From Dysgonomonas sp. (GTDB lineage Bacteria; Bacteroidota; Bacteroidia; Bacteroidales; Dysgonomonadaceae): 64,000 nucleotides of DNA. The notes under the pieces are model-generated. The model searched no databases, was not told the DNA's origin, and was given only the letters and a program-made list of their open reading frames with translations. The stretch is taken from the NCBI GenBank assembly GCA_031546965.1, contig JAVBJR010000595.1:7041-71040 (forward strand). Reading direction: 5' to 3'. Position numbers and translations under genes: made by a program. Below, piece by piece: positions 1,359 through 59,841 of this stretch; position 1 is the first letter of the stretch; every line of letters starts with the position of its first letter.

Positions 1359-1369
1359 TTTTAATAAAT

Positions 1370-2371: not shown

Positions 2372-2376
2372 TCAAA

Positions 2377-2430: not shown

Positions 2431-2439
2431 TATAAAAAA

Positions 2440-2871: not shown

Positions 2872-2895
2872 TAGACATAAAATTTTGAAGTGATA

Positions 2896-2930
2896 AGCAG
2901 AGGTCTTTTTAGACTTCTGCTATTTTTTTT
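2896..2930 (+). terminator. Rho-independent terminator after sufE
   Basis: AGCAGAGGTC / GACTTCTGCT stem followed by a T-run. Confidence 0.75.
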
Positions 2931-2984
2931 ATACATTTGCTTATATCGGAACTCGATGTGTAATCCAGTACTAAAAAAGTATGT

Positions 2985-30929: not shown

Positions 30930-31002
30930 ATTGTTTTTATTAGATAAATTGTAAATACGGAGAGCCTGTTCTTTGAAACAAGCTCTCTATTGTATTTTTA
31001 AC

Positions 31003-32370
31003 TTAAGGTTTTAAAGAAGGACTTTCGAAGTCTAATTTTCTCAACCCGTTTTGCACGTCGGGGTGGCTCATAAACAACTTCCAAAGTAATTGCGAACGGT
31101 AGTTTTCGATCATAACAGCAATAGGTCCTTGGTCAATTGCCAAGTAGCGGCGAGGATACCAATTATCGGTTTCGCTGTAAGCATCATAGAAGCCGTATTT
31201 ACCCCACATTTTGTCGCCCATGGAATAAAGGTGACGCATCACTTTCATCGACTCTTGAGGTGTATATACAATAGACGAAAGGGCAGCTGTAGGGCTTATT
31301 ACTCCAAGATCTCCTCTTTCGGAAGGTTCGTGAGCCGCATACCCTTTTACCGAATAGCTGGCAGTCAGTCCCCAAGCATTCTCGCCGTATCCTCTAAATT
31401 GTTTAGGATTACTGATACAATACTTGCGGTTTACCAAAGTGTAATTCTTCATTTCGTTGAAATAGTTAGGACTGTACATATCCTTCAAATTGGTAGGATT
31501 TAATCCTAAGAAAGAATAATGTGTCCAAAACAGAGGACCGGCTTCAGTACCTTGATAACGGAAGTCCAATGTGATACCCTGTACAGTATGAGCACCTTTT
31601 ATAGCACCACTTTCAGCCCATCCTTCGTGATACACTTCGGCAGGTACTCCGTGAGTAGGCGAACAGGCGGCAAGTACATAAGTAATTAAACATTCATTGA
31701 ACCCACGAATGGCAAAGTTCATCTCCCATGAGTGATCGGGGCTCCAGTGCCAATATAATACATTTTGTCCGTTACGGTGCCAGTTCCAATCTACGGCTCT
31801 CCACAGTTTATCGATACGGGCAGCTACTGCTTTTTCGGCATCCGATCCGTTTACATAGTATTGGTGAGCGGCAAGTAGACCTTGCATCAGAAACGATGTT
31901 TCTACTAAATCGCCTCCATTGTCTTTATCACTGAAACCTCTTACTTTACCGGTTTCGCCATACCACCAATGAGGAAATACTCCGTGAAAGCTATCGGCTT
32001 TTTCCAAGAACGTTACAATTTTGTCCATCCTGGCTAACCCTTGGTCACGAGTAACATATCCACGGTCTATACCTGCAATTATTGCCATGATACCAAATCC
32101 GCTACCTCCTGAGGTTACTACATTTTGGTCGTTTTGAGGATATTCGCCATCTACATGATAGCGTTCGCGAGCCATTCCACTGGTTGGTTCTGCACCATCC
32201 CAAAAGTAATTGAACGTACGGTGCTGAACACTGTCTAACAGTGCTTCGTCGGTTATTTCGGCTTTTACCGGTGGTTCGGGAATAATGTCTGTGTCGCTGT
32301 TGGAGCTTTTACAATTTGTAAAAGTCAATAACAGACTAAGTATTAGAAATGGGGCATATACCTTTTTCAT
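31003..32370 (-). CDS. GH144 beta-1,2-glucanase (glucoamylase-like) lipoprotein
   Basis: Lipobox FTNC; TFNYFWDGAEP.SGMARER, GGSGFG, DNGGDLVET, NECLITY, GPLFW.HYS.LG, YLAIDQGP. Confidence 0.9.
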   Translation of the reverse strand: MKKVYAPFLILSLLLTFTNCKSSNSDTDIIPEPPVKAEITDEALLDSVQHRTFNYFWDGAEPTSGMARERYHVDGEYPQNDQNVVTSGGSGFGIMAIIAGIDRGYVTRDQGLARMDKIVTFLEKADSFHGVFPHWWYGETGKVRGFSDKDNGGDLVETSFLMQGLLAAHQYYVNGSDAEKAVAARIDKLWRAVDWNWHRNGQNVLYWHWSPDHSWEMNFAIRGFNECLITYVLAACSPTHGVPAEVYHEGWAESGAIKGAHTVQGITLDFRYQGTEAGPLFWTHYSFLGLNPTNLKDMYSPNYFNEMKNYTLVNRKYCISNPKQFRGYGENAWGLTASYSVKGYAAHEPSERGDLGVISPTAALSSIVYTPQESMKVMRHLYSMGDKMWGKYGFYDAYSETDNWYPRRYLAIDQGPIAVMIENYRSQLLWKLFMSHPDVQNGLRKLDFESPSLKP

Positions 32371-32478
32371 AAAATAAATATTTTAATAAGTTAACCTGTC
32401 TTTTAAAATAGAAAGAGATTGCCTGAATGCGTGTTCTGACAACTCCTTTCACTTGGCATTATAGAACTTGGAATATAT

Positions 32479-34764
32479 TTAGTTCAGAGTGAATCGGGCT
32501 GTTTTAACATCTTTGCTATTACCACCGATCATTACATCAAAATCTCCCGGTTCGAAGACATATGCTAAATCGTAATTGTAAAATTTAAGCATTTCGGGAG
32601 TAATTTTAAAACTTATTGTTTTGGTTTCTCCTGCCTTTAATTCTACCTTTTCGAATCCTTTCAGCTCTTTAACGGGGCGTGTTACGCTGCCTACTAAATC
32701 GCGAATGTATAACTGAGCAACTTCTTTGCCTGCATACTTTCCGCTATTTGTTATGGCGATGCTGGCAGTAAGTTCTCCGTTTTTATCTAATTTAGTTGAG
32801 CTGAGAGCAATGTCTCCGTACGTAAATTGAGTATAGCTCAATCCGTATCCGAAAGGATAGAGAGGATCGTTGCTAACATCCATATAATTGCTGCGGAATT
32901 TTTCGAACCATTTGCCTTCTGCCAATGGGCGACCTGTATTTTTATGATTGTAATAAAGAGGTATTTGACCTACGTTTTGAGGGAAGGTTGCTGCCAATTT
33001 ACCGCTTGGATTAACATCACCAAAGACTACGTCTGCAATTGCAGGGGCAGCTTCGCTACCACCAAACCATACATTGAGGATGGCTGGTACGTTTGCATTT
33101 TCCCAAGTAAGTGTCAATGGACGACCTGTGAAAAGAACCAATACTACAGGTTTACCTGTTTTTAAGAGTTCAGCAAGTAATTCTTTTTGTACATCAGGTA
33201 TACCTATATCGGTACGGCTACTAGATTCTCCACTAAATTCGGATGATTCACCCAATGCAGCTACAATTACGTCGGCATCTTTTGCTGTTTCAAGAGCTTC
33301 GTTCAACAATTGTCCTTTGGTACGGTCGTCTCTGTTCAAGGTACGTCCAAACATGGTTGCATCAGCTTCCAGCTTAGCGTCTGCTGTAAGATTGCTACCC
33401 TTGGCATATACTACTTTTACGTCTTTACCGCCAACAGCCTGCATGCCCTCGATAAGGGTTTGAGGTACATCCATCTTAGCGGCTACACTCCATGTTCCGG
33501 GCATGTTAGAGCGAGTGTTACCTAATGGACCTACTATGGCTATTTTACCTTGTTTTTTAAGAGGCAATACATTGCCTTGGTTTTTCAACAACACGAAACT
33601 TTCAGAAGCTATTTTACGTGCTATGTCACGATTTGCATCTGTATAAATTTCATTTTTAGCACGTTTCGGATCCATGTATTTATATGGATTTTGAAACAAG
33701 CCCAATTTGTATTTCGCTTCCAATATACGACGACAAGCCTGATCTATATCGGCTTGTGATACTTTGCTTTCTTTTAGTGATTTTGTTAAAGTGCTTGCAA
33801 ATCCTTCGGCAACCATATCCATATCTACTCCTGCTTTGAGGGCACGAGCCGACACTTCTTGTAAATCGCCGATACCATGTTCTATCATTTCGCTGATTCC
33901 GGTATAGTCGGTCACTACAAATCCGTTAAAGCCCCATTGTTTACGAAGCAAATCTGTCATCAGCCATTTGTTGGCAGTAGCGGGTACACCGTCTACTTCG
34001 TTGAACGAAGCCATAACACTGCCTACACCTGCTTCTACAGCTGCTTTGTATGGGTACATATATTCGTTCATCATCCGTTGGCGGCTCATGTCAACCGTGT
34101 TGTAGTCGCGTCCAGCTTCACCTGCACCATATAGGGCATAGTGTTTTACACACGACATAATGTGTGTATTATCAGAATAGGTATTGTCTCCTTGATAACC
34201 ACGAACCATGGCTTTTGCAATCTGTCCACCCAAATAAGGGTCTTCGCCGTTTCCTTCCGACACTCGTCCCCAACGTGGATCACGCGAAATATCTACCATC
34301 GGGCTGAATGTCCAGAATATACCGTCGGCACTGGCTTCTGTTGCTGCAATACGAGCTGATTGTTCTATCGCTTTCATATCCCAGGTTGCAGCCAATCCCA
34401 ATGGAATAGGAAAAACGGTTTCGTATCCGTGAATAACATCCATACCAAAAATCAAAGGGATTTTCAGACGGCTTTCTTCTACGGCTATGCGTTGTACATC
34501 ACGTATTTTATCGACACCTTTGATGTTAAATACACCTCCGACCTGACCTTTTTTGATCTTAGTGGCACTATCGCTACTTTTAGCCTGACCGGTGGTAATG
34601 TCTCCGGCACCGGGTAAGTTGAGCTGACCGATTTTCTCTTCGAGGGTCATTTTACTCATCAGATTGTTGATGAAGCTGTCCATTTTTGGATCTCTCGCCG
34701 GCTTGGTCTGTGCGACAACTCCCAATGAGAGAAGAAAGCAGATGCCTACAAATACTTTTTTCAT
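32479..34764 (-). CDS. bglX: GH3 beta-glucosidase BglX
   Basis: GMDVIHG, RDPRWGR, VKHYA, VVTDY (nucleophile), SGESSSR, C-terminal Fn3-like domain. Confidence 0.95.
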   Translation of the reverse strand: MKKVFVGICFLLSLGVVAQTKPARDPKMDSFINNLMSKMTLEEKIGQLNLPGAGDITTGQAKSSDSATKIKKGQVGGVFNIKGVDKIRDVQRIAVEESRLKIPLIFGMDVIHGYETVFPIPLGLAATWDMKAIEQSARIAATEASADGIFWTFSPMVDISRDPRWGRVSEGNGEDPYLGGQIAKAMVRGYQGDNTYSDNTHIMSCVKHYALYGAGEAGRDYNTVDMSRQRMMNEYMYPYKAAVEAGVGSVMASFNEVDGVPATANKWLMTDLLRKQWGFNGFVVTDYTGISEMIEHGIGDLQEVSARALKAGVDMDMVAEGFASTLTKSLKESKVSQADIDQACRRILEAKYKLGLFQNPYKYMDPKRAKNEIYTDANRDIARKIASESFVLLKNQGNVLPLKKQGKIAIVGPLGNTRSNMPGTWSVAAKMDVPQTLIEGMQAVGGKDVKVVYAKGSNLTADAKLEADATMFGRTLNRDDRTKGQLLNEALETAKDADVIVAALGESSEFSGESSSRTDIGIPDVQKELLAELLKTGKPVVLVLFTGRPLTLTWENANVPAILNVWFGGSEAAPAIADVVFGDVNPSGKLAATFPQNVGQIPLYYNHKNTGRPLAEGKWFEKFRSNYMDVSNDPLYPFGYGLSYTQFTYGDIALSSTKLDKNGELTASIAITNSGKYAGKEVAQLYIRDLVGSVTRPVKELKGFEKVELKAGETKTISFKITPEMLKFYNYDLAYVFEPGDFDVMIGGNSKDVKTARFTLN

Positions 34765-34855
34765 ATTTTTTTATTTTTAAGCTGCCAAGAATATGAATAA
34801 AAATTCAAATTCCCGGCAGCTTTTATTTTAAAAACTTATAATTAGCTGCCTGCCC

Positions 34856-36277
34856 TTACCAGTTAGGGTTTTGCTTCATTGCCGGTGTTTCGATCAACTG
34901 TTGATTAGGAATAGGGAACAATTCATGTTTTCCTTCTACAAATGTTTTGCCATCAAGAGCCATAGCAGCTTTGGCTTGTCCTGTACGAACTAAGTCGAAC
35001 CAACGGTCGTGCTCAAATGCCAGCTCCAAGCGACGTTCGTGCCAGATGGCTTTGCGTAAGTCGTCTTTGGCGGTTAGGGTAATGCCGGTAAGATGTGCTC
35101 TAGTCCTGATTTGGTTCACAGCAGTTAAAGCCTCGGCGGTTTTACCCAACTCGTTGGCAGCTTCTGCTTGTATCAAGTAGATTTCGCCTAAACGCAAGTA
35201 TCTGATATTTTTATCGCTATATGTAGCTCCGGGTGCTGCACTCGAGTAAGCTTTCAGGTTGTACATGGGGTTCTCGGTTGAACCTACTACACGTCCATCC
35301 CAAAGGGTTGAATTTCTGAAAATAATGGTTCCGTTGCGACGAACCATATCGCCCGAGTCGTTGAAATCTGCTAATAAACCTGCGGAGGGAGTATTGAATC
35401 CCCATCCCCATCCGGTATCTCCGCGAGCACCTTGTGTTTGCGAATATTGTCTTGTACCTAATGCTGGAGAGTCTCCTCTACTTTGGAACTCAAATAACGA
35501 TTCTACACCATTTTTAGTAGAAGCTCTCCAAAGGGCAGCGTAATCAGATTCTAATTGATATTGTCCCGAACCTATAACTGTGGTAGCCATGTCGTATGCT
35601 TCTTGCCATTTGCCTTGGTACAAATATACTTTAGATAACAAACCTTGTGCAGCACCTTTGGTTGCACGTCCTAAATCTTTGGATGGGTACTCACTCTTTT
35701 TGGGCAGTACTTGTATTGCGTCCAACAGGTCTTTCTCGATGTATGCGTAAACCTCTGCTTTGGGGGCTCTGTTTACATCGTCTTTGCCTTGTATGGTTAC
35801 GTCTCCCCATCCTCTCACTAAGAAGAAGTAGTTGAGTGCACGCAAAAACTTGGCTTCGCCAATCAATCTATTTTTGTAAGCCGCATCAGTAAGACCAAAT
35901 TTTTCGGTGTACTCAATGGCTTGTGTTGCACGACCTATCGCCTTATACCAACGTGTCCACATGTCTTTAATAGAACTCGATGTACTGGTGTATGTGAGAC
36001 CATCAAGTATATGTTTGTCCCCCCCTGTATCGTCGGTAGAACTCCCTTTGTCGGCATTATCCGAAATAATTTCAGTAATTCCCAAATAAGCAAATGCATA
36101 ATCCCAGTCGGTAAACATACCATATGTACCATTTACAAAATCCTCGGGTTCATACACTGTAGGACTGTCTTTTGCATCTACATTTTCCTCCGATGGCACA
36201 TCTAAAAAATTGCTACATGCTGTCGTAAGTAACAGTATTGATGTTGCAGCTATAATATTTATATATATTTTTCTCAT
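34856..36277 (-). CDS. susD: RagB/SusD family nutrient-binding lipoprotein
   Basis: Lipobox TTAC; GEAKFLRA..YF.LVR.WG, GRATKGAA..LL.KVYLY, ERRLELAFEHDRWFDLVR, QNP.W. Confidence 0.95.
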   Translation of the reverse strand: MRKIYINIIAATSILLLTTACSNFLDVPSEENVDAKDSPTVYEPEDFVNGTYGMFTDWDYAFAYLGITEIISDNADKGSSTDDTGGDKHILDGLTYTSTSSSIKDMWTRWYKAIGRATQAIEYTEKFGLTDAAYKNRLIGEAKFLRALNYFFLVRGWGDVTIQGKDDVNRAPKAEVYAYIEKDLLDAIQVLPKKSEYPSKDLGRATKGAAQGLLSKVYLYQGKWQEAYDMATTVIGSGQYQLESDYAALWRASTKNGVESLFEFQSRGDSPALGTRQYSQTQGARGDTGWGWGFNTPSAGLLADFNDSGDMVRRNGTIIFRNSTLWDGRVVGSTENPMYNLKAYSSAAPGATYSDKNIRYLRLGEIYLIQAEAANELGKTAEALTAVNQIRTRAHLTGITLTAKDDLRKAIWHERRLELAFEHDRWFDLVRTGQAKAAMALDGKTFVEGKHELFPIPNQQLIETPAMKQNPNW

Positions 36278-36301
36278 GATTTTTTACTTTTACTTAATTG
36301 A

Positions 36302-39300
36302 TTAGAACGAAAGATTAAGACCAAATATGAAATTACGAGTTGTAGGATATGCCGCCGTTTCTATACCCGCTGTTTCTTTTGGACTACCAACATTTGCTGC
36401 ATTAGGGTCACTCGAATATCCCGAAAGCTCAGGTGAAAATCCGGAGTAGTTTGTGAAAATTAATGGATTTTGAGCCGTGAAATAGAATCTCAAATTAGAT
36501 CCCTTGAATAGAGCATTGTTAAGCGTGTATCCCAACGTAAGGTTATTGATACGGAAGAATGATCCACTTTCCAAATAGTAGCTCGAAGCATTCGAGTCAT
36601 GGTTAGCTCCGGGATTTGTATTTGATGTCCCGTCACCCGTCCAACGATCTTTATATGTATCATAAGCAATGTTTTCGCCACCATTTATTCTAACACCCTT
36701 CAATGCATTGTATATTTTATTACCATATACTCCATATCCGTCTAGGCTGAAATCAAACTGCTTGTATCCCAATCCTATATGTATACCATAGTTAACTGTG
36801 GGTAGGTACGATCCTAAGTATTTTTTGTCCTTGTCATCAATCACTCCATCACCATTTTGATCTTTGTATCTCAAGTGACCGGGAGCAGGTGATCCATACT
36901 TTGCGTTGGCAGGATTATTTATCTCTGCTTGATTTTGCCATACTCCATCAGTTTCCCACATCCACCATGCATAAATAGGTTGATTTTCTCTCAGTTGTTT
37001 CGTGATTTGCCCGTTTCCTAAGCTACCACCGGTATCACCATCATATGCGGGTTTTACATTAACTACCTTGTTGGTATTGTGTGAGTAGTTGGCACTGATT
37101 TCGTAAGTAAAACCGTTAGCCAACCTATCTTTCCATCCAAGATTTAATTCTATCCCTTTGTTGTTCACTTCTGCACCATGAGCTAGGTAGTTGCCTTTAA
37201 ACTGAGAATTTGATACGGGTTTTACATCTAAGATAGTATTGGTATTAGTCTTATTGTAATAATCGACACCGGCTGTCAACCTGTCGTGCAGAAACGCAAA
37301 ATCAGCTCCGATACCCCATTCTTCGGTTACCTCCCACGATAAAGGAAATGCCGGACTACCAAAGGCTGCACCAATATAGTAGGTGTAATCGGGTCCAAAA
37401 ATATAGTTGTAGTCTTTAGGATCATTCACATCGGAACCTGTACTGATACTGCTTACGACAGGAGGTACATTTTGGTTACCCAATTTACCCCAAGTTGCTC
37501 TCAGCTTCATATAGTCAAGAAAAGTAAAGCTTTCCATAAAGCTTTCTTTAGATATAGTCCATCCTGCACCTAGTGAAGGAAAAGTTCCCCAATAGTCTTT
37601 AGATTCCTTAAAAGTACTTGACCCATCGCGTCTTATAGTTCCTGTCAAGTAATATTTGTTGTCGTAGTTGTATTGGAAACGACCGAAATACGAAGCTAAT
37701 GCTCTGGGTGTGTACGAAAATTGATCGATGGTTTTTGCATAAGCATTAGAGGCATGTTTCATGCTCCAGTAGTTGCTTTCGGCAGGTACATCATAGCCTT
37801 TCAGAGCAGTTTTACCTCCAATACCTTGTTTTTCACGAGACAAACCGGCTATAACGTTTACGTTGTGCTTATCGAAGCTTTTATTGAAAGTAAGGAATCC
37901 TTCCCATGTCCAACGATAAGTATCTAAGTTTGTCAATGCAAGAGAGTTATTGGCAAAAGTTTCGTTTGATGGTGCTGCCGCCTTTGAAGCATTAAAATCT
38001 GTCTCTGTTTTGTTTGGATTTTGAAATAACCAACCTTCTTTTACATTAACAAAATTTCTATTGTCGGTGTAGTATTTTGTGGCACCAAAACGAGAACTGG
38101 CTGTCAGGTAATCGGTTATTTTAAATTCACCTTCAATACCTCCTTGTATAGAAAGGGTATGATTCGTTAAATTTTGTTTGTTTCTTGAGAACAATGGGTT
38201 GCCTATAGAGTTTAATTCAGCTGTAGGAACACCGGGAGGACTTGTTTTTTCAACGATACCGGTTTGCATATTTGCACGGGGTACTCCATAAGTTCCGTCT
38301 GCGTACCTTGTTGGTACCAAAGGCGATTGGCGATAGGCATCATCAAAAGGTCCGTAAGTGACTACTCCTTCATTGGCAAACGATATACTCAAGTTTTCCT
38401 TAAATTTCAAACGATCGTTAAAGAACTTGAATACATTGTTATTTCTTATTGTAGTACGTTGGTAGTCTTGCCCACTAAGCATACCGGTTTCATCATAAAA
38501 GTTGTAGCTGAAAAAATAATCTACCGCTTTGCTTCCCCCAGATAAAGACACAGTATTGTTATTAAAAATACCTGTGCCAAGAATTTCGTCATACCAATCG
38601 GTATTATAAGCTTGTTTATCGGCATCAGCCAAGAAATAATATTTCTCGGGATGGGTTGGATCTGCAGTTTTCAAAGTTTGCTGATTCTCATTAAAATACT
38701 GGATGTATTGCGAAGCGTCAGCCATTTTTACTCTGTTTAGGACGTTTTTCATCCCGATGTACGATTCTACACCAATTTTGGTTTTGCCTTCTTGTCCTTT
38801 TTTTGTTGTAACGATAATAACACCATTGGCAGCACGTACCCCGTAAATAGAAGCCGATGAAGCATCTTTCAATACATCCATCGAAACAATGTCCGAGGGG
38901 CTGATATTTTTGATATTTTCGGCAGGAAAACCGTCTACAATATACAATGGGTCGCGTCCTGCCAAAGCTGTACCCAATCCGCGTATAATTACTGTTGGAG
39001 AAGATCCCGGAGCATCCGATCCGGTGATACTTACCCCTGCCATTTTTCCTTGAATAGCTTGAGCTGCATTCAATGCCGGTTGTTTCATAATAGCGTCTGC
39101 TGATACACTTGATATAGACCCTGTCAAATCGGCTTTCTTTGCTGTACCGTAACCGATAACAACAGTTTCGGTCAATACCTTACTGTCATCGACCAATGTA
39201 ACATTAATTTTTGTTTGTGAGGCAACCGCTATCGATTGCGTTTTCATACCTAAGTAGGTGAAGTCGAGTACATCTCCTGATTTTGCGGCAATAGAGTAAT

Positions 39301-39508
39301 TACCATCAAAATCGGTAACTGTTCCGGTAGTGGAACCTTTAATAATAACACTAACTCCGGGTAAAGGTTCTTTTTGCCCGTCGGTGACTACTCCTGTTAT
39401 TGTAGCCTGAGCAAAAGCATTCGAAATACTTGCTGAGAAGATTAAGAATAGCAGAAGGCAAAGCTTCAGACTCATTCTCCTCATAGAGGTGAATTTAGTT
39501 TCTTTCAT
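36302..39508 (-). CDS. susC: SusC/RagA family TonB-dependent transporter
   Basis: CarboxypepD_reg N-terminus, [35 protein letters not shown], C-terminal [15 protein letters not shown]. Confidence 0.97.
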   Translation of the reverse strand: [1068 protein letters not shown]

Positions 39509-39613
39509 GGATTTCTGATTTTACTGTTAAACAATTATTTATTTAAGTATATATTCAAGTATAACTTCCTTAAAAAAGGGGTGTTATCTTAATCATTCTT
39601 AAATAATCTGCAA

Positions 39614-39621
39614 CAAATGTA
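39614..39621 (-). promoter_or_regulatory. -7 box of susC promoter
   Basis: CAAATGTA on + = TACATTTG on -. Confidence 0.65.
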
Positions 39622-39766
39622 AAAACAGTAAGTTCAGAGGATGTATAATTTATCTCACGATGAATACTTCCAGCTGTTATTTAACAATAAGCAGACCTCA
39701 TTTTTACTACTCAAAATATTTTAATTTATTAATATATAGCATTTTACCCAGGTCGTATTTTACTAT

Positions 39767-42565
39767 TTACATTTGCAAAAAGAAGTCATTTAAGTGTTGA
39801 TGTGAGGGGATATCCAGCTTTTTTCGTAGTCTATACCTGCTATTTTCTACTGCTCTCACCGAAATGTTCATAAGAGCAGCTATTTCTTTGGAGTCTAAAT
39901 TGAGCTTCAAACAGGCACAAAGACGCAGGTCGTTAGCTGTGAGTTGAGGGTAGGACTCTTTTATTTTTTTGAAAAAGTGTGTATGTTTCTGTTCGAATTT
40001 GATCAAGAATGTTTTCCAATCTTCTTCACTATCCAAATTGCTGTTAAGCAAGGTATTGATCTTTTGAAACAGAGGTGCTAAGGTTTTATTATTTTGTTTG
40101 GTGTAGAATTCTTCCACTTCGTTTTTAATATTAAGAATCAGCTCATTACGCTGTATAATGAATGAGGTTTGAGATAGTAGTTCTGCATTTTTTTCTTCTA
40201 CCTCTTGCTGGAGATGCTCATTGATAAGGTTTAAACGTTTGGATTCAAGTATACGCATTTTCTTGATATGCAGCTTTTTGTATTTATATTGAACGTACGC
40301 AATAATAGCTGCAATAAATAGCATGAACAATACAAAATAGGCTGTAATTGCCCAGCCCGACTGATACCAAGGAGCTAATATCTCGAAAGAGAATCGGATT
40401 TCTTGGGACTTGTTTCCTTGACGGTCTATTGCGACCAGTATAAAGGTGTATTTACCCTTAGGAAGACGTTCGTAAGTAACATGGTTTTGATTCTTAACGG
40501 CATACCATTGATCGTCTAAGCCTTCGAGTTTATACAAGAATGACAGGTTTCGGGTCAGCGTTTCGGCTGTAGAAAAACTAAAGTTAATGGTATTGAATGA
40601 GTGGCTTATCTGATTAAAATTGTTGTCAAGATAGTCTGATTCTCCATTAGAATTGGATATTTTGATCGATTTGAAGTAGGATTGTGCTATCGGTTTGTAG
40701 TCTGCCGTTAATTTATTTTGGCACAATAAGAAGCCGTTATCTAAGCAAATAAGACTCAAATCATCGTCCAAATTGACGATATTTTCATAATTGTCAACCA
40801 TCGAGAAGTTTTTGTACCCTATATCTATAGTAAATTTTATTTGAGCCCTATTGTCAGCATAAGTTACATTGTAAACAAGGTTATTACCTATGATCCAAAA
40901 ATTTTCGGGAGATATATTAACCACCTCTTTGAGTCCGGTAATATCCCGAAAGCACTCGTTCAAAGCATTTTCGGGAACAATAGATCCGTCGATATCATTA
41001 TAAGTATAGAATTTGTTATTGCCCAGAAAGGCAACCCTTCCACCTACTTTAAACAATTTCAATTTGTACGGGATGTCCTGCTGACCTTCGCTTCCATAAT
41101 ATTTGAATGATTCTATTTTAGAGAAGTCGTTATTGAGCCGGGTTCGGTATATGCCCTTATTCATGTGTTGAAACCAAACATTATTAAGATGATCGGTCTG
41201 CACTTTATTAATAGGTTCGAGTACCTCATTCAAATTATGGATGGTTTTGGTTTTTTTATCTAAAGTTATTACGTTGACGTAAGTACCCAATAGGAGATGA
41301 TCGGGATCTTTTTCGAGTATATAAAATACTCCTGCATTAATATTATAAGGAGCCGTTACAGACAGGTTTTTATCTATTACAAGTAATCCCCAATTATGAG
41401 AGCAATACAACTGATTGTCAATAACATTGAGACTCCAAACCTGCCCTTCTGTTTTAGGTACAAACCTAAATTTAGAGAGGGCATTCATGCTATATAAGTC
41501 ATTTTTTTCGATATAGTATACCCCTTGATTTGTTGCCACAAAAAGCTTGTTGTCGTATAATGCAGCCGAATATACAGCACCTATTTTTCCCTTAGGGTCT
41601 GTTATACAGCTAATTCCGTTCAAGTACTGTATACAGGATATTCCTCGGTCTAATCCTGCCCAAATATTGTAAGCATGATCTTCGTATATAGACAATACGG
41701 TATTGTTGTGCAGGTAAGTTTCGGTATTGAAGTGATTGGTTATGTTTCCATTTGGCGACAATTCGTATACTCCCCCGAGAATTGTGCCAAAGTAATAATT
41801 GCCGTTATGAGCAGCCAGTCCGCAATTGATATTATTGTCAATCAGTTCATTATTGTTATTCCAGACCTTAAATTCTACTCCGTCGTAAATATAAAGTCCC
41901 ATAGACGATGTGCCTATAATGTACTTATTATCAGGAGAGGGAAGCACTGTTTTGACTTCTGTCTTTGAAAATATTTCGCTGCCTGCTATTTTAACATAAC
42001 GATCTCCTTCTATTTTAAAAATACTTCCACCAATTTCTTGCACCCATAGTTCGTTGTTGACTTTTATCAAAAGAAGGATACTTTTCTGTTCGGGCAATAT
42101 ATATACATTATTTTGATCGTAGATATAGATATTTCTGAAAGACTGAAAATAGATCAAGTTATCTTTTTTCCAGATTCTCCAAATGTCGTCATTGTGTAGT
42201 GGACCTCCCGGTAAATTATCACTTAAGGAGGTGTATTTGAGAAGACCGCTGATGCCTCTATCCCATCGACCAAATTCTTCGTATCCACCCGTATAGATGG
42301 TCTGATTGGAGGCAGCCGACACAGCCCTCACCACATCTGCTTTATGTAATTTGTTGAGATGCCAGTCTATCCCATCGAACTCAAGCAACCCTAAATCGTT
42401 TCCTATGTATATTATCCCCTTTTCGTCTTCGCTCAAAGACCAGTTTTTGTTGCCGGCTTGGTAGTCGTTTCTGTTAAAGTTAATAATGTTAGGATTGTTG
42501 GCTGATATGGTGATGAATGATAATATAAAGACAGTTATTGCTGTCAAAAACATATATCGAGTCAT
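39767..42565 (-). CDS. Membrane-spanning one-component regulator: beta-propeller sensor + Y_Y_Y + TM + LuxR-type HTH
   Basis: YQAGNKNW, YKLEGLDDQW...YERLP.GKYTF (Y_Y_Y), PWY + TM, LTANDLRLCACLKLNLDSKEIA.LMNIS.RAVE..RYRLRKKL; no histidine kinase. Confidence 0.9.
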   Translation of the reverse strand: MTRYMFLTAITVFILSFITISANNPNIINFNRNDYQAGNKNWSLSEDEKGIIYIGNDLGLLEFDGIDWHLNKLHKADVVRAVSAASNQTIYTGGYEEFGRWDRGISGLLKYTSLSDNLPGGPLHNDDIWRIWKKDNLIYFQSFRNIYIYDQNNVYILPEQKSILLLIKVNNELWVQEIGGSIFKIEGDRYVKIAGSEIFSKTEVKTVLPSPDNKYIIGTSSMGLYIYDGVEFKVWNNNNELIDNNINCGLAAHNGNYYFGTILGGVYELSPNGNITNHFNTETYLHNNTVLSIYEDHAYNIWAGLDRGISCIQYLNGISCITDPKGKIGAVYSAALYDNKLFVATNQGVYYIEKNDLYSMNALSKFRFVPKTEGQVWSLNVIDNQLYCSHNWGLLVIDKNLSVTAPYNINAGVFYILEKDPDHLLLGTYVNVITLDKKTKTIHNLNEVLEPINKVQTDHLNNVWFQHMNKGIYRTRLNNDFSKIESFKYYGSEGQQDIPYKLKLFKVGGRVAFLGNNKFYTYNDIDGSIVPENALNECFRDITGLKEVVNISPENFWIIGNNLVYNVTYADNRAQIKFTIDIGYKNFSMVDNYENIVNLDDDLSLICLDNGFLLCQNKLTADYKPIAQSYFKSIKISNSNGESDYLDNNFNQISHSFNTINFSFSTAETLTRNLSFLYKLEGLDDQWYAVKNQNHVTYERLPKGKYTFILVAIDRQGNKSQEIRFSFEILAPWYQSGWAITAYFVLFMLFIAAIIAYVQYKYKKLHIKKMRILESKRLNLINEHLQQEVEEKNAELLSQTSFIIQRNELILNIKNEVEEFYTKQNNKTLAPLFQKINTLLNSNLDSEEDWKTFLIKFEQKHTHFFKKIKESYPQLTANDLRLCACLKLNLDSKEIAALMNISVRAVENSRYRLRKKLDIPSHQHLNDFFLQM

Positions 42566-47820: not shown

Positions 47821-49116
47821 CTATTTCCGCCGTATTACATTTATATCTCCTGCCTCTTTGTAATGCTTACCTTCGGAGCCAAGTGCGTCTATGGCATAAA
47901 AGTATACTCCTGTATTTACATACCTTCCATTGTATTTTCCGTCCCATCCTTGTGCGGGATCAGTCCATTCATAAAGTTTATTTCCCCATCGGTTGAAAAT
48001 AGTACATTTGAATTTGACCAACGATTTGTACGTAACTTTAAATACTCTAGCTTCTTCGCTGTTTGCATCGGGAATTAAAATATTAGGTATTTTAAGTTCC
48101 GATTCGGAGATCGACAGTTGCACATTTGCAGTATCGGCACAAACAGAACTTCCATCGGCTACTTCTAATACCACTTTAAATGTTCCGGCATTATTGAATG
48201 TATATTTTATATTTTTATCCGTATAACGAACAATGGGGTTTTGCATATCCTTTGTATTGTAAATAAACCACGTATAAAAACGAGCTGTGGGTTCGTTTCC
48301 ATATCCCGAAAAAGTAACTTCCGCAGGAGCAGATCCTCCCAACTCAACCGGTTTCAGATTAGCATCAAGTTGTACGGCATCCACAAAGGCTTTGGTTCTC
48401 ACGGCTATATAGTTTCTACTCTCTATAAAAATGTTCAGCCCAAAATGTTCGGCAAACTGGTCGCCGCTTAATGTAAACTTGGTGTCCATAAAGGGAGCAT
48501 CAATTGTTCTGTCGATACCAATATCAACCGGACCTATTGTTTTGGTTTCGGGTTTAAATTCTTTCGTTTTTCCATCCAAATCAGGATATTCTATTGTGTA
48601 TTTTCTGATTATTGAGTACTTGCCGCCGGTGGTTGCATAATAGGGTAAATCGTCCGATTTGTCAATTAATAATTTAAGATAGTCACATTTATCTTCTCCC
48701 TCCGAAGGTTGAATAGAATTTAGTTTGGGCAGATGTCGGCTATAGTCAATTATCCATATCACGGCATTATTTGTTCCATTTACTTCGGCAAAATATCCTT
48801 TGGAATCTTCGAGATTAGTAATTGTATAGGTGGTACTATTTCCACTGATGCTTGTGGTTATATCAGAATAGGGTATCAGTACCTTGTCGGACAGAGATTG
48901 TGTATACTTATAAAAACGCACAACAGCAGCACTGGAGGTATAGGAAATGGATGCTCCCGAAAAAGTATTGAGAAGGTAAATCTTAGAAATACCTGTACCT
49001 CCCAGTGCATCAGTATATTCAGCGGGTTTTCCTCCAATCCCACCCGACACGGTATATTGTGCCCATGATGTAATCGAAAATACAAATAAAAGTAAGCTGG
49101 TGAGAAGATATTTCAT
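47821..49116 (-). CDS. Secreted protein with PKD domain and gliding-motility-associated (T9SS type B, CHU_C-like) C-terminal domain
   Basis: Signal peptide; YTFNNAGTFKVVL (PKD); IFNRWG.KLYEW....QGWDGKYNG....GVYFY.I.A.G.....Y...GDINVIR. Confidence 0.85.
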   Translation of the reverse strand: MKYLLTSLLLFVFSITSWAQYTVSGGIGGKPAEYTDALGGTGISKIYLLNTFSGASISYTSSAAVVRFYKYTQSLSDKVLIPYSDITTSISGNSTTYTITNLEDSKGYFAEVNGTNNAVIWIIDYSRHLPKLNSIQPSEGEDKCDYLKLLIDKSDDLPYYATTGGKYSIIRKYTIEYPDLDGKTKEFKPETKTIGPVDIGIDRTIDAPFMDTKFTLSGDQFAEHFGLNIFIESRNYIAVRTKAFVDAVQLDANLKPVELGGSAPAEVTFSGYGNEPTARFYTWFIYNTKDMQNPIVRYTDKNIKYTFNNAGTFKVVLEVADGSSVCADTANVQLSISESELKIPNILIPDANSEEARVFKVTYKSLVKFKCTIFNRWGNKLYEWTDPAQGWDGKYNGRYVNTGVYFYAIDALGSEGKHYKEAGDINVIRRK

Positions 49117-49442: not shown

Positions 49443-51251
49443 TTATTTCTTTAAAGAATTACATACTTCTTGGTTAACTTGACGAAGACGTACCTCATCT
49501 AACTTAACAACCTCGCGGTCATAAGTCATCAAGCCATTTATTTCACCTTCAATATCTGTTGCTTGAGTATAAACAGCAGCAGAGAATCCTGCTTTTATCA
49601 ATCTTTTCAGAATTTCGGCATAGTTTATATATTCGTCTGTTGCTTCTTTCGAATTTCTGAATCCGACATATCCCCAGCTTTTGGAAGGATCCCACATATG
49701 CCTATCTATCGCAAGAGCTATTCCTCCATATCCGCCTAATACTGTGGCTCTTTGAGTATCATACATGCTAAGTATAGGAACTGGATAAGCGAAAAAATCG
49801 AGTATATCGCCTGTATGAAAATGATTGCCACCGGCTGCAGGATTCACCAAACGCGACGGATCGTATGTTTTAGTCCATTCAGCAGTTTCTACCGTTCTGA
49901 ATTGTCCCCAAGCTGTATTAAATGGAATCCATGTTACGATAGAAGGATATGACACAAGACAATCAATTATCTCTTCCCATTCTTTGTAGAAGTTTGTTTC
50001 CGATTCAGCCGAACGAACAAGTTCTTCACCATTAAAATACTGATTGAATTGCAATTGAGACGCTCTATCGCCGCTAGGCATATCTTGCCAAACTAACATT
50101 CCTATCCGGTCGCAATGTGTGTACCAACGAGCAGGTTCTACTTTCATATGTTTGCGGATCATATTAAATCCGAAGTCTTTTGTTTTCTGAATGTCATATA
50201 TCAAAGCTTCGTCTGTTGGAGCAGTATATAATCCGTCGGGCCACCAACCTTGATCGAGCGGTCCAAATTGAAAATAGTCTTTGTTGTTTAACTGTAAACG
50301 TACAATTCCATCCTTGTCTTTTTGGGTCGAAATTTTACGCATGGCTGCATAACTCTTCACTTTGTCAACCAATTTTCCTTTGTCATACAGATTAACTTCA
50401 AGATCATATAAGAAAGGAGATTCGGGCGACCACAACTTCACACCAGATATAGGGATACTCAATTGTTCACCCACTGCTTTCTTTACTTGGGCTACAGTAG
50501 ACGAACCGTTTTTCACTATTACTTCGACCATATCGGCAGAGGTAGTTTTTTCGGTAGCAATATCTATGGATAGTTTTTTAGTATCTATGTTAGGAATCGT
50601 TTTTATTGATGATATATATTTAGCATTCACAGGCTCCAACCAAACGGTTTGCCAAATACCCGAAACGGGTGTATACCAAATACCTTCGGGTCGTATACTC
50701 TGTTTTCCTACAGGTTGAAAACTCTCATTTGTAGGATCCCACACTTTTACGACCAACGTTTGGTTGTCTGATGTAAGAAAAGGAGTTATATCAAACGAAA
50801 AGGGAGTATAACCACCTGTATGGCTTCCTACTTTGACATTGTTGAGGTATACTTCGGTTTTCCAATCCACTGCGCCAAAGTGCAATAGGATGGTTTGGTT
50901 TTTCCAATCGGTCGGAATGGTAAACGAACGCTTATACCATAAATTTTTCTCTTTTCCGAGTGATTTCTGAACTCCCGAAAGGCTCGATTCTACGGCAAAC
51001 GGAACAAGTATCTTACCATCGTATTTTTGAGGTTCGCTTTGTCCGGTAGGTAATATGGCATACTCCCACAATCCGTTGAGGTTTGTCCAATCCTGACGTT
51101 CCATTATAGGACGCGGATACTCGGGCAAAACGCTATTTACATCAATGGTTTGTGCCCATTTTGTCTTTATTTTATCTCCCATCGGTTTCCATTGAGCAAA
51201 CAGTCCGATGCAAGAAATGATCATTGAGAATAATAAAATTTTTCTTTTCAT
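49443..51251 (-). CDS. GH2 family protein, both catalytic Glu substituted
   Basis: PEYPRP, LNGLWEY, LHFGAVDW, LDQGWWPDG, FNMIRKH..VEP; WIPFNTAWG (normally NE) and VLGGYGG (normally GEYGG). Confidence 0.9.
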   Translation of the reverse strand: MKRKILLFSMIISCIGLFAQWKPMGDKIKTKWAQTIDVNSVLPEYPRPIMERQDWTNLNGLWEYAILPTGQSEPQKYDGKILVPFAVESSLSGVQKSLGKEKNLWYKRSFTIPTDWKNQTILLHFGAVDWKTEVYLNNVKVGSHTGGYTPFSFDITPFLTSDNQTLVVKVWDPTNESFQPVGKQSIRPEGIWYTPVSGIWQTVWLEPVNAKYISSIKTIPNIDTKKLSIDIATEKTTSADMVEVIVKNGSSTVAQVKKAVGEQLSIPISGVKLWSPESPFLYDLEVNLYDKGKLVDKVKSYAAMRKISTQKDKDGIVRLQLNNKDYFQFGPLDQGWWPDGLYTAPTDEALIYDIQKTKDFGFNMIRKHMKVEPARWYTHCDRIGMLVWQDMPSGDRASQLQFNQYFNGEELVRSAESETNFYKEWEEIIDCLVSYPSIVTWIPFNTAWGQFRTVETAEWTKTYDPSRLVNPAAGGNHFHTGDILDFFAYPVPILSMYDTQRATVLGGYGGIALAIDRHMWDPSKSWGYVGFRNSKEATDEYINYAEILKRLIKAGFSAAVYTQATDIEGEINGLMTYDREVVKLDEVRLRQVNQEVCNSLKK

Positions 51252-51330: not shown

Positions 51331-52335
51331 TCAAAATGTTGGATTTGGTGCTGATAAAGAAGGGCTTCCATCGCCAATATGAGGCCAATTGTTAGTATCC
51401 CATTTTACTTGGTCGAGAAGTAAAATTCGACCTTTCGGGTTCTTTATATCAACACCGTGATAGAATATCCAATCGTTACCCGCCTCATCCTTTACTATTT
51501 CGGAACAATGTCCGTTTCCTACAAACCGGCTATTGCTGTTGATAACTATATCATAACCATTATTGAGCATACTTTTTCCGCTTTTATCAGTATAAGTTCC
51601 CAATAACGATTTTGACCTACCTACCACCAATTTGTAAGTACTCTTCACCCCTTCGCAACAGCTTCCGACAGAGGCAAACATATAATAGTAATTGCCTTTT
51701 TTATAGATGTAAGTACCTTCAAATGCAGTACCTGCAATTTTTTTCTTTTTGGCTCCTTTTTTTAAAGTAAGTCCGTCGTTACTAAGTTCAATAGCATAGA
51801 TACCTCTGAAGCTACCCCAAAACAAATACTTCTTTCCACCGTCTTCTATATAGACAGGGTCTATCGAATTGGTTACGCCAATTTCATTACTTCTGAAAAG
51901 CTTTCCTTTGTCGGTAAAAGGTCCTGCCGGACTATCGGCAACAGCTACCCCAATGCCACAGGTTTGTTCACCTCCCCAAACCGACATCGAATAATAAAGA
52001 ACGTATTTGCCATTAACAGAATTAATATCGGGAGCCCAAAGCCCTCCTTTCGGTTCGAAAGTAGGACGGCTGCTGTCTGTAAAAGCTGTTCCTACAAAGC
52101 TCCAATTTACCAAATCTTTCGATTTATAGATGGGCATATTACGCATATCCTCTGTAGCATACAGGTAAAAGTATCCATCGTTTGCTTTTATGATGGAAGG
52201 ATCGGGCAAGCTTCGTGCTACCACCGGATTGGAGTATGTACCCGATTGGGGAGAAGGAGCCGGCTCATTATTTTGTGCAAAGCAAGTGCCTAAACTAACT
52301 GCCACAACAAATAAGAATAGAAGTTTTTTTTTCAT
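51331..52335 (-). CDS. GH43 family glycoside hydrolase, secreted
   Basis: LPDPS (base), WAPD, SIDP (pKa modulator), FEGT (acid), GNGH. Confidence 0.92.
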   Translation of the reverse strand: MKKKLLFLFVVAVSLGTCFAQNNEPAPSPQSGTYSNPVVARSLPDPSIIKANDGYFYLYATEDMRNMPIYKSKDLVNWSFVGTAFTDSSRPTFEPKGGLWAPDINSVNGKYVLYYSMSVWGGEQTCGIGVAVADSPAGPFTDKGKLFRSNEIGVTNSIDPVYIEDGGKKYLFWGSFRGIYAIELSNDGLTLKKGAKKKKIAGTAFEGTYIYKKGNYYYMFASVGSCCEGVKSTYKLVVGRSKSLLGTYTDKSGKSMLNNGYDIVINSNSRFVGNGHCSEIVKDEAGNDWIFYHGVDIKNPKGRILLLDQVKWDTNNWPHIGDGSPSLSAPNPTF

Positions 52336-52347
52336 CGTATTAAACCT

Positions 52348-54363
52348 TTATTTTTTCTTATAATTAAAATAATTTTCTACCCGATCGGGGCTAAGCATTT
52401 GCCACAGCGAAGCCACTGTCCAACCCGGAGCAAAGATATCATTGTAAAAGCCTTTTCCGTTTTTACCATAGTCCCAATTGGTATGCTGTACAACTTCGGG
52501 GTAATATCCAACCTTACCTATGTCAAACATGTGTCCTTTAACAGGCATCAATTGAAGCATCGAACTTTTGATTACAGCCGAAAATTGAGAGAATCGAGGC
52601 TCGTTACGTTCTTTTGCCAACCAATTTAAAACGGTTGCAAACTCAAAAATAAACACATCAACGTGATTGTTTTCGACCGATACATTTCCCCAACCTCTCG
52701 ATTTGAAGTTTACATCGCCCAACATCTGCCCTTGTGCAAAAGGTACATCCCACATATAGTACCACGAAAGGCTAAAGTAGGCAGCTTGTTTACTCAAATC
52801 GATATAATGTTGTTGTTCTTTTCCTTTTGACACCATTGCCATATAATACATAGCAGTAGAGGCATATAGAGATGCTTCTTTGTCTTCGCAGTTGGCATCT
52901 AAGGTCGACGAGAAATAGTCGGCTTTAGAAACCAGTTCTTTCTCCAAATAGACGGCTGTGCTTTTGGCACTCTCTAAGTACGATTTGTTATTGAAATAAG
53001 TATAAGCCATTGTCAATGGCAGGGTTGCCGACGGAGTACTGCCTCCCGACTCATCTACAATTTTGAAATTGTCGTCAAATTTACGAGGAAAGCTACCGTT
53101 TGCTTCTTGTAATTTAAGGAAATTGTCCAACAAGGTTTTTATTTTGGTTTCCCACTCGGTATGCTTACGACCTTTTCTTTTTTCGTATTCAAGGTAGTTC
53201 AACAAGGCAAAAGCTCCTTCAGACTGGCGGCGTATGCTGTATACTTTTGTTTCATCATTATGATTGTAATCTACAAACTCACGGAAGAAACCCGAAGGTG
53301 TAAAACCATATTGTAGGTAACTATCGAATATCGAATTTGCTTTTGCTACCAAATCGGGCTTATTATTTGCTTCGCCATACTCCAGTGCATTAAAGGCATT
53401 GAGTAATACACGTCCCACAAAACCAACTTCAACAGAACCTGTACTTTCGCAATCGTCGGTACGCATGTGTACTCCCGAAAAATATTTCAGGTCGTATTTA
53501 TTAACATAGCTTTCGGTGAAAAAATTAGAAAGAGTTGCTTTGGCATCAGCTGTCGATAAATGGTCTTTTACTTCTTGAGGTCTCAAGGTATCGAACGAAT
53601 AATTCCAAACAGAAGCTACGAATTTAGAGAAATTTTCTGCTTTGCTCTTCCTTATTTCCCAAACAAGTTGACGGGTTTCGCCTTTTTCCAACTTTTCGAA
53701 AGCTTGCACAGCAGGAGCTAAAGTCAACTTACGTATATACGTTTTAGGTGCTTCGGCATATGGAAAACCAAAAACAAGTGCCGATTGTCCCCCCTGATTA
53801 CGGAATCCTGTAAATCCTAAGGATGTTTTACCCGATAGAATAATTTCGCCTTGACTATGACATGCTAAGCTTTCGTTCTTAAAATCGTCTCTACGCAATA
53901 CGGTGTAATAAGCCCCGGTTTTTTCGTTGAAAATTCCGGTTAATGGTGTACTCAAACGGTCTTCTCTCACCTGCCAGCTATCGCTTGTGTAGAACGATGG
54001 TGCTTCTTTGGGCGACCTTAGATTGCGTCTGTACCAAAATCCGGGCATATAAAACTGGCAATCGTTGTGACTCATGGTTGTATTATAACTTTCTTCGAAA
54101 TTATAATATACTACCTCTTTTGCTTTGATGGTGATCGTTAATACCAGTGAAGAATCATTTTCTACCGTCTGTTCTTTTATTTCTACGGGTATATTTTGAG
54201 TAGATGACAAAATACCATTCTGTGCCTGCAACGGATATGATATTGCCGGATTTCCGGGAGTTTTTAAGGTTATTTGTCGCCCCAGTTTATCATTCATATT
54301 GGCAGCATGAGTCAACCCGATAGAGGTAATAAATAACGTAAATAGTAATAATCTTTTTTTCAT
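52348..54363 (-). CDS. Secreted hypothetical protein, 671 aa, candidate glycoside hydrolase
   Basis: Signal peptide; beta-rich N-terminal half and helical C-terminal half; sits between two GH43 genes with a 12-nt gap to the next gene. No family recognised. Confidence 0.8.
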   Translation of the reverse strand: MKKRLLLFTLFITSIGLTHAANMNDKLGRQITLKTPGNPAISYPLQAQNGILSSTQNIPVEIKEQTVENDSSLVLTITIKAKEVVYYNFEESYNTTMSHNDCQFYMPGFWYRRNLRSPKEAPSFYTSDSWQVREDRLSTPLTGIFNEKTGAYYTVLRRDDFKNESLACHSQGEIILSGKTSLGFTGFRNQGGQSALVFGFPYAEAPKTYIRKLTLAPAVQAFEKLEKGETRQLVWEIRKSKAENFSKFVASVWNYSFDTLRPQEVKDHLSTADAKATLSNFFTESYVNKYDLKYFSGVHMRTDDCESTGSVEVGFVGRVLLNAFNALEYGEANNKPDLVAKANSIFDSYLQYGFTPSGFFREFVDYNHNDETKVYSIRRQSEGAFALLNYLEYEKRKGRKHTEWETKIKTLLDNFLKLQEANGSFPRKFDDNFKIVDESGGSTPSATLPLTMAYTYFNNKSYLESAKSTAVYLEKELVSKADYFSSTLDANCEDKEASLYASTAMYYMAMVSKGKEQQHYIDLSKQAAYFSLSWYYMWDVPFAQGQMLGDVNFKSRGWGNVSVENNHVDVFIFEFATVLNWLAKERNEPRFSQFSAVIKSSMLQLMPVKGHMFDIGKVGYYPEVVQHTNWDYGKNGKGFYNDIFAPGWTVASLWQMLSPDRVENYFNYKKK

Positions 54364-54495: not shown

Positions 54496-55467
54496 CTATT
54501 TTACTTCTTGAGGTACTATTATATTGCCTCCTATTTTCATAACAGGCGTTGCATCGTTGGTAAAAGAGACATCTGTTATATACATCAGGCGTGGATGTAT
54601 ATTCTCCTTATCGTGATGGGCATGAAATACCATTCGCAGTCTGCCTTTCTTATCTTTAAATATCGCACTGTGTCCCACACCTACAAGATTGCCGGGTTTC
54701 TGAAAAATGGGATTCTTATCGTACTTTGTCCAAGGACCCATAGGCGAAGAAGCTGTTGCATAACCTACCCCATAGTTTTGGCTTTGATAATCGTTTGCCG
54801 AATAAATCATATAGTAAGTGTCCTTGTGTTTTACGATAAAAGAACCTTCGGTAACCCGTCCTAAATCGTTTTCCCACTTTTCGGTCACATGTACACAGGG
54901 TTTCATGGTTTCTTTCTTCATTGTTTTCAGATCGGATTCCATTTGGGCTACCCAAATATTATTGCCATCCGTGAAGCGTACAAACGAGAGGTATGCTTTG
55001 CCGTTGTCGTCTATAAAAAGCGAATTATCGATACATTTTTCGCTTTCTATAATTGGTTTTTGTACCTCTTGACGAAAAGGTCCTGTGGGTGAGTCGGAAG
55101 TAGCAACGCTTATATGCTCCTCAACCGAATAATACATGTAGAATTTTTTGCTCTGTGGAATGTAATATACTTCGGGAGCCCAAAACCATTTGTCGCCCCA
55201 CGAATCGTTTTTATGCAATGCTAAAGTCGGTTGTTTTTTCCAGCTAATAAGGTCATTGGATGTATATACAACAATACCGTCTTTATCATCCGTTCCATAG
55301 GCATAATAAGTATTGTTATGCAACATGATGAAAGGATCGCCTAAAGCAACCGGGTGTTCTAAATTAGTAACAATCTCTCCTTTTGGGGATGTAGAAACTT
55401 TATTGCTATTGCAAGATGCTAAGATTATAGTCAGAAGAGTAAAAAGGATGCCTTTTAATATTTTCAT
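54496..55467 (-). CDS. GH43 family glycoside hydrolase, lipoprotein
   Basis: Lipobox LASC; LGDPF, WAPE, CIDN, VTEG, GVGH. Confidence 0.92.
   Translation of the reverse strand: MKILKGILFTLLTIILASCNSNKVSTSPKGEIVTNLEHPVALGDPFIMLHNNTYYAYGTDDKDGIVVYTSNDLISWKKQPTLALHKNDSWGDKWFWAPEVYYIPQSKKFYMYYSVEEHISVATSDSPTGPFRQEVQKPIIESEKCIDNSLFIDDNGKAYLSFVRFTDGNNIWVAQMESDLKTMKKETMKPCVHVTEKWENDLGRVTEGSFIVKHKDTYYMIYSANDYQSQNYGVGYATASSPMGPWTKYDKNPIFQKPGNLVGVGHSAIFKDKKGRLRMVFHAHHDKENIHPRLMYITDVSFTNDATPVMKIGGNIIVPQEVK

Positions 55468-56196: not shown

Positions 56197-59841
<3,645 letters not shown>

Follow-up and report, generated by a model that had tools for sequence, protein, structure and literature searches.

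What does a large, apparently secreted protein without any recognizable domain contribute to a cluster of glycoside hydrolase (GH) genes? The question is raised by a locus of Dysgonomonas sp. in a 64,000-nucleotide stretch of assembly GCA_031546965.1 (contig JAVBJR010000595.1, positions 7,041 to 71,040), referred to here as the window. The gene (P0001) is an ATG-to-stop open reading frame (ORF) of 671 codons at 52348..54363. A preliminary description of this DNA had reported the same reading frame without its strand, which is minus, and had suggested that the product is either GH182-like or the first of a new family, in a cluster directed at galactofuranose (Galf). We consider the GH182-like option the more likely of the two. 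The protein is probably, at roughly 70%, a GH182 exo-beta-D-galactofuranosidase. This reading is based on the predicted fold, the context in polysaccharide-utilisation loci (PULs), the presence of two copies in Bacteroides finegoldii, the spacing of their accession numbers and the integrity of 127 of 127 invariant positions, rather than on a comparison with the sequence of the GH182 founder, BACFIN_04787.

The connection to GH182 runs through B. finegoldii DSM 17565. In the available excerpts of PMC10115798, PUL35 and PUL36 of B. cellulosilyticus are induced on mycobacterial arabinogalactan, and the homologous PUL39 and PUL47 of B. finegoldii DSM 17565 yielded the GH43_31 protein BACFIN_08810 and the "previously unidentified" BACFIN_04787, an exo-acting galactofuranosidase and the founding member of GH182. 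The galactan substrate of that study was from Corynebacterium glutamicum delta-ubiA. Excerpts of PMC11627007 place galactofuranosidases in GH2, GH5, GH43, GH117, GH159 and GH182, and a GH43_31 enzyme is active on p-nitrophenyl-beta-D-Galf according to part of PMC6442616. As far as these excerpts extend, PMC10115798 and PMC11627007 uphold the premise of the preliminary description that galactofuranosidases occur in GH43, GH2 and GH182, the last from a Bacteroides galactofuran locus.

A B. finegoldii genome (G321) encodes two full copies of the Dysgonomonas protein; a third match there is partial, with 426 residues aligned. By exact sequence, the full copies are EEX43528.1 and EEX47404.1 (60.5% and 59.8% identity, respectively), and the proteins neighbouring them are named as B. 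finegoldii DSM 17565. Copy 1 (EEX43528.1) belongs to a PUL that reads SusC, SusD, GLUG-motif protein, GH43, copy 1. The PUL of copy 2 reads hybrid two-component sensor (EEX47402.1), GH65, copy 2 (EEX47404.1), SusC, SusD (EEX47406.1), SusE/F, GH43, GH31. If one sets aside the GLUG-motif protein next to SusD in the first PUL, for which no enzyme-family match was found either, the copy is in both PULs the sole enzyme candidate that lacks a family. The GH43 of either PUL could be BACFIN_08810.

By convention, GenBank accession numbers would be expected to run with locus tags. The accession numbers of the two copies are 3876 apart, as compared with a published locus-tag spacing of 4023, and about 150 RNA and pseudogene tags would produce this gap if accessions run with tags. 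By our own estimate, which assumes ~4400 proteins and accessions parallel to tags, so close an agreement in spacing would be seen for only a few percent of gene pairs drawn at random. From the PUL make-up together with this spacing, rather than from the founder sequence, we conclude that BACFIN_04787 is likely one of the two copies. The likeness to the founder is drawn from strain, PUL make-up and spacing: the founder strain carries two 60%-identical copies in GH43-containing PULs, and the founder was unannotated beforehand, as is the Dysgonomonas protein. A SusE/F-bearing locus nine accession numbers from copy 1 was considered as that of the published SusC BACFIN_07563 and rejected, being a dextran-type PUL (GH66, GH31). 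In the complete-genome assembly G321 many genes, for MutS, SusC, SusD, GH43, GH65 and GH31, are split by frame breaks (L125, L126, L128 and L132); both copies are intact.

The Dysgonomonas protein carries no family assignment, as had been stated. A Pfam and NCBIfam scan returned no family at E≤0.01, and phmmer against all Protein Data Bank (PDB) chains returned nothing at E≤10. A profile of 26 diverse members of the family searched against the PDB gave helix-hairpin matches only, of ~75 residues, to GH76 mannanases (E 3e-7), PL10 and squalene cyclases. Individually, these 26 members have weak Pfam matches, nearly all below curated cut-offs, to the GH127 catalytic-domain model PF07944 (eight members; best E 1.9e-5, 24.3 bits against a cut-off of 24.9), Pec_lyase (seven), a C5-epimerase C-terminal model (six), GH88 (five) and GH76 (three). 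Nearest in language-model space are Bacteroidota clusters without names; clusters labelled GH127 or GH76 come next. Membership of the protein in GH127, GH76, GH88 or AGE was rejected, the support for it consisting of sub-threshold helix-hairpin matches.

Judged by eye, the N-terminus (MKKRLLLFTLFITSIGLTHA/AN) looks like a type-I signal peptide of residues 1-22 (54298..54363, minus strand) without a lipobox cysteine, in agreement with the earlier view of the protein as secreted. The six motifs singled out in the preliminary description as conserved are all found in the translation, at residues 105 (YMPGFWY), 132 (VREDRLSTP), 377 (IRRQSEG), 489 (DANCEDKEAS), 562 (SVENNHVD) and 620 (YYPEVVQHTNWDY), and contain positions that are invariant in alignments of the family.

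A database search in which 7995 candidates were scored with a cut-off of E≤0.001 gave 6546 matches. The best 120 share 75-89% identity with the protein; the named ones among them are from Dysgonomonas and have the product "hypothetical protein" or no product name, and none of the 120 has a precomputed Pfam domain. The closest relatives are from an uncultured Dysgonomonas and D. alginatilytica, both with 89% identity. When one representative per 50% cluster was searched, 681 matches were obtained at E≤0.001, 89 of them at E≤1e-30. The protein keeps every one of the 127 columns in which 115 orthologs (identity of at least 55%) show no variation. This conservation, together with the 6546 matches, indicates that the gene is real, far beyond chance. 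Among genomes sampled from the taxonomic family of G001, 51 of 301 encode a member, as do 116 of 250 genomes in one Bacteroides-type genus (that of G222). D. gadei has two copies, and the source genome has, besides this gene, only a 24%-identical distant paralog. That paralog (G000 contig C388:31167-32504; locus L082, ORF 1051-3288) is 745 residues long and has six-hairpin Pfam matches, all sub-threshold. Proteins similar to it, of ~750-780 residues and 22-33% identity, occur in other Bacteroidaceae genomes, suggesting a sister family likewise without a domain model.

An AlphaFold2 model was built on an alignment of the 26 diverse members, which spans diversity down to 19% identity, and has a mean predicted local distance difference test score (pLDDT) of 91.6 and a predicted template-modelling score of 0.91. 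It consists of a beta-sandwich (strands within 27-241), two linker helices and twelve barrel helices within 313-666; the signal peptide is modelled as a helix at residues 2-17 with low pLDDT. By DSSP of the model, the N-terminal sandwich occupies residues 27-241 (53641..54285, minus strand). The (alpha/alpha)6 barrel was assigned to residues 263-667 (52363..53577, minus strand) from VIA-align and the invariant columns, and these residues superpose on known members as a twelve-helix, six-hairpin barrel. The helical C-terminal half, which the preliminary description had thought consistent with an (alpha/alpha) barrel, is confidently modelled as one, and the Foldseek comparison that it had recommended also returns a glycosidase-type fold. 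As modelled, the protein combines a six-hairpin barrel of the glycosidase/lyase type and an accessory sandwich, and close relatives are absent among solved structures. No published structure for the family turned up in literature searches or fold searches; the preprint of PMC10115798 is silent on the fold of the founder, and the other papers found to mention GH182 do no more than list it.

In a VIA-align run against 48,161 chains, the top barrel match was D-mannose isomerase 5x32_B (Z 30.2, root-mean-square deviation (rmsd) 3.2, 351 residues aligned over 266-664), followed by cellobiose 2-epimerases (Z 28-30), GH76 (Z 24-27; 6u4z, 27.0) and the GH88 enzyme 1vd5 (Z 26.1). GH76 alpha-1,6-mannanases, GH88 unsaturated glucuronyl hydrolases and AGE-family enzymes therefore share the barrel with the model (Z 24-30, rmsd 2.9-3.8). 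They differ in that the match is to the barrel only, at 8-12% identity, and covers the helix-hairpin repeats rather than a catalytic motif; none has a beta-sandwich in the arrangement seen here.

The residues invariant in the 26-sequence alignment include P107, N114, D135 (of the REDR motif) and E204 in the sandwich and R378, Q419, D489, E496, W534, E623 and W648 in the barrel. A 13-sequence alignment of a closer set adds E564, H567 and D569. In six-hairpin enzymes the active site lies at the inner-helix starts. In the model, R378, Q419, D489, E496, E564, H567, D569 and E623 are positioned just before or at these starts. Judged from secondary-structure positions rather than distances, the active site would lie on the barrel face where the inner helices start, with D489 and E496 (DANCEDKEA), E564 and D569 (ENNHVD) and E623 as candidate catalytic acids. 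The sandwich loop R133-E134-D135-R136 and E204 probably shut the pocket, as expected of an exo-enzyme.

When genomes were scanned at one per species, relatives turned up in 532 loci. The 80 best of these, with 60-89% identity, are from Dysgonomonas, Tannerellaceae, Bacteroides, Alistipes, Muribaculaceae, Sphingobacterium and Pedobacter. For these 80, the ATG-initiated ORFs of at least 150 residues that lie no more than 8 kb from the gene were clustered, and of the 45 commonest clusters, which include that of the protein itself, 27 were annotated via representatives. The most conserved partner is a GH43 cluster (59 of 80 loci). SusC is found in 55 loci and SusD in 47, with five more in a second cluster, followed by a hybrid two-component sensor (24), aldose 1-epimerase (20), a BNR_2 propeller (20) and a small GH2 of the ORF1110/7SF2 galactofuranosidase clade (16). 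The gene sits in PULs.

The window has a minus-strand, co-oriented run of a LacZ-type GH2, a GH43 lipoprotein, the gene under study, a second GH43, a small GH2 and a PKD protein sorted by the type IX secretion system (T9SS), and thereby bears out the co-orientation with the GH43 lipoprotein, GH43 and GH2 described previously. The GH43 lipoprotein (54496..55467, minus strand) is upstream across a 132-bp gap, matches PF04616 (E 9.9e-51) and PDB entry 3KST (E 4e-92), has the lipobox LASC and shares 42% identity over 211 residues with the GH43 adjoining B. finegoldii copy EEX43528.1. The second GH43 (51331..52335, minus strand; PF04616, E 1.4e-73) begins 12 bp downstream and shares 53% identity with the GH43 of the second B. 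finegoldii PUL. The small GH2 (49443..51251, minus strand) completes the set. With gaps of 132, 12 and 79 bp, the arrangement suggests that GH43, the gene, GH43 and GH2 form one operon. A scan for sigma-70 promoters and terminators, which is unsuited to Bacteroidota, found 32 against 41.2 expected from shuffles.

By tblastn, 56 of the 80 loci have a homolog of the upstream GH43, 25 have one of the downstream GH43 and 17 have one of the small GH2 (15 at 60% identity or more). The LacZ-type GH2 (56197..59799, minus strand) is a 1200-residue protein with an N-terminal ricin-B lectin domain at residues 36-162 by Pfam and NCBIfam. At the other end, 326 bp downstream of the operon, a 431-residue protein (47821..49116, minus strand) has PKD domains and a CHU_C/T9SS type-B sorting domain. 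No tblastn homolog of the LacZ-type GH2, the T9SS protein or DUF421 was found near the gene in any of the 80 loci.

Combining these observations, we propose that the protein is a glycoside hydrolase, either periplasmic or secreted, whose gene is transcribed together with those of the two GH43 enzymes and the GH2-like protein. Both GH43 enzymes, the first of them a surface lipoprotein, would cut or trim Galf-containing microbial or fungal glycans, and the protein would remove terminal Galf from the resulting oligosaccharides.

Structures matched by the small GH2 are 7SF2 (BACCELL_01794 of B. cellulosilyticus; E 1.5e-267) and 9J6N ("Beta-D-galactofuranosidase 2", Streptomyces ORF1110; E 2.1e-149), and excerpts of PMC11627007 give 7SF2 as the nearest structural neighbour of the Galf-specific ORF1110. 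The small GH2 belongs to this galactofuranosidase clade and is catalytically degenerate, with both catalytic glutamates lost (E446T and E507G). Its motifs read PFNTAWGQ and TVLGGYGG, as compared with PFNEAWGQ and xVLGEYGG in 15 of 15 orthologs (identity of at least 60%), and 7SF2 and 9J6N also have Glu at both sites. The aligned 9J6N positions, 441 and 507, correspond to the acid/base E464 and the nucleophile E530 of ORF1110, given the 23-residue offset of the 45-635 construct. The codons are ACA, a three-base change from GAG in the two nearest orthologs, and GGA instead of GAA. Sixteen of 253 ortholog-invariant positions are changed in the small GH2 (15 orthologs), as compared with 0 of 127 in the protein under study and 0 of 56 and 1 of 86 in the two GH43 proteins. 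The small GH2 may be a pseudo-enzyme or a binding protein. The same genome encodes a 66%-identical GH2 paralog with both glutamates on another contig (C351), and the dead copy suggests a way in which operons of this type change when they also have a second galactofuranosidase.

Several observations weigh against a GH182 galactofuranosidase, some directly and others by favouring an alternative. The proposed membership is indirect, as it was reached through the founder strain. Ranking of SusD genes along G321 places only two PULs between the copies and does not reproduce PULDB 39 and 47, and no pair of tag and accession was found by which the spacing could be calibrated: EEX44367.1 is cited without a tag, and BACFIN_07013, BACFIN_07563 and BACFIN_05187 without an accession. 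It is unlikely that the founder is unrelated to the protein, in which case this would be a large unclassified family of carbohydrate-active enzymes. No SusC/SusD pair adjoins the cluster in the window, so that the gene, in a four-gene operon with a GH2-like protein, differs in setting from the B. finegoldii copies. The proposal of the preliminary description that the cluster targets Galf is supported, with two caveats: the GH2, although of the ORF1110/7SF2 clade, has lost its glutamates, and one GH43 is arabinanase-like.

This last feature favours a different furanosidase. The protein could represent an unclassified glycoside hydrolase family of alpha- or beta-L-arabinofuranosidases, with an operon acting on plant arabinan or arabinogalactan. 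The closest solved structures to the downstream GH43 are endo-1,5-alpha-L-arabinanases (1GYD, E 5e-39), it scores 162 bits against the NCBIfam AbnA cut-off of 480, and NCBI gives its ortholog in B. finegoldii the name arabinan endo-1,5-alpha-L-arabinosidase. Excerpts of PMC11627007 state that galactofuranosidase and L-arabinofuranosidase specificities overlap. A LacZ-type beta-galactosidase is encoded upstream in the window, the GH182 membership is circumstantial, and GH127/GH146 beta-L-arabinofuranosidases resemble the family in that PF07944 clusters are among the language-model neighbours and that eight of the 26 distant relatives weakly touch this model. In GH127 enzymes the nucleophile is a cysteine that belongs to a zinc site. 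Of the four cysteines in the protein (0.6%), none is invariant in the 26-sequence alignment, and no PF07944 match was found at E≤0.01; GH127 was rejected for the protein on these two counts. No GH127 or GH146 structure is among its best 50 fold matches. As the LacZ gene is near the gene in none of the 80 loci, the recurrent GH2 partner belongs to a Galf-specific clade and both PULs of B. finegoldii are in keeping with the galactan PULs that have been published, we regard an arabinofuranosidase as improbable.

A second group of observations concerns acidic glycans. The best Foldseek match of the model is the PL27 L-rhamnose-alpha-1,4-D-glucuronate lyase BACCELL_00875 (5NO8; E 2.7e-11, TM 0.46, 11% identity), followed by the two-domain enzymes GH116, GH94, GH52 and GH63. 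In VIA-align, 5NO8_A has Z 25.7 and rmsd 5.6, with 470 residues aligned over model residues 26-662; among the matches listed, it alone aligns both domains at moderate rmsd, as compared with ~19-22 for the GH94/GH116/GH15-type matches. Like the protein, it has an N-terminal beta-sandwich and a C-terminal (alpha/alpha)6 barrel (PMC8377490), and their lengths are 669 and 671 residues. GH88 enzymes, which normally follow a lyase, are within 8 kb of the gene in eight of the 80 loci. An Alistipes locus (L047) has two. In D. gadei (L019, 5391-12016), the neighbours are GH88, a GFO/IDH/MocA oxidoreductase and a 3-keto-disaccharide hydrolase, not GH43, a gene set that we take to be an oxidative glycoside-cleavage route. 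A 7.1-Mb genome of the same Bacteroides-type genus (G346, C2:836000-895700, L133-L135) has a 60-kb PUL supercluster with two copies of the gene 37 kb apart, encoding four GH43, three GH88, GH115, GH130, a mannosidase-type GH2, a sulfatase, GH31 and a GH63-like gene. A PF12831 FAD oxidoreductase and a glutaminase-A-like six-hairpin protein are also encoded there. No polysaccharide-lyase Pfam match was found among the neighbours scanned in L019 and L047 or among the 25 ORFs scanned in the supercluster, despite one to three GH88 genes in each.

If the family is not GH182 but wholly unclassified, which we consider doubtful, the structural kinship to PL27 and the recurrence of GH88 in clusters without a polysaccharide-lyase match would suggest that the protein is a lyase of a new kind, or else an unusual hydrolase, with acidic glycans of microbes or fungi as substrates. 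The same evidence would suit a PL27-like polysaccharide lyase that cleaves beside uronic acid and whose unsaturated products are hydrolysed by the neighbouring GH88. The protein shares the PL27 architecture but not its sequence: identity to 5NO8 is 10-11%, there is no sequence-level match, and 5NO8 is absent from the 47 profile matches at E≤10. Moreover, PL27 acts as a lyase on gum-arabic caps, whereas the context here is GH43 and GH2 rather than uronate metabolism. The dominant partners are GH43, SusC/D and a mutarotase, not uronate enzymes, and no GH88 is encoded in the window's own operon, making a PL27-like lyase very improbable. A sugar isomerase, epimerase or binding protein with an (alpha/alpha)6 barrel that does not cleave glycans is barely tenable, even though the highest barrel Z scores (28-30) belong to D-mannose isomerase and cellobiose 2-epimerases, because those enzymes are single-domain and aligned to the barrel only, AGE-family enzymes are cytoplasmic, and the protein has a signal peptide, a PUL location, an extra beta-sandwich and invariant acidic residues clustered at the inner-helix starts.

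A GH182 exo-beta-D-galactofuranosidase thus remains the preferred reading. The protein would then be a further member of a family that is known, if barely described, rather than an enzyme of a new kind, and the predicted fold, candidate catalytic residues, distribution and partner genes are what is added here. The family is without a Pfam or NCBIfam model and is annotated everywhere as "hypothetical protein". If the tie to GH182 is true, thousands of blank annotations would gain a testable function, the removal of galactofuranose, which bacteria, fungi and protozoa make but mammals do not.

A separate PUL is encoded elsewhere in the window (29175-42565, minus strand). It includes a Y_Y_Y/LuxR-type regulator, SusC, SusD, GH3, a PF10091 "putative glucoamylase", which we take to be GH144-like, a GH43 with an F5/8 type C domain and an esterase. 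This PUL looks like a beta-glucan-type locus, unrelated to the gene described above.

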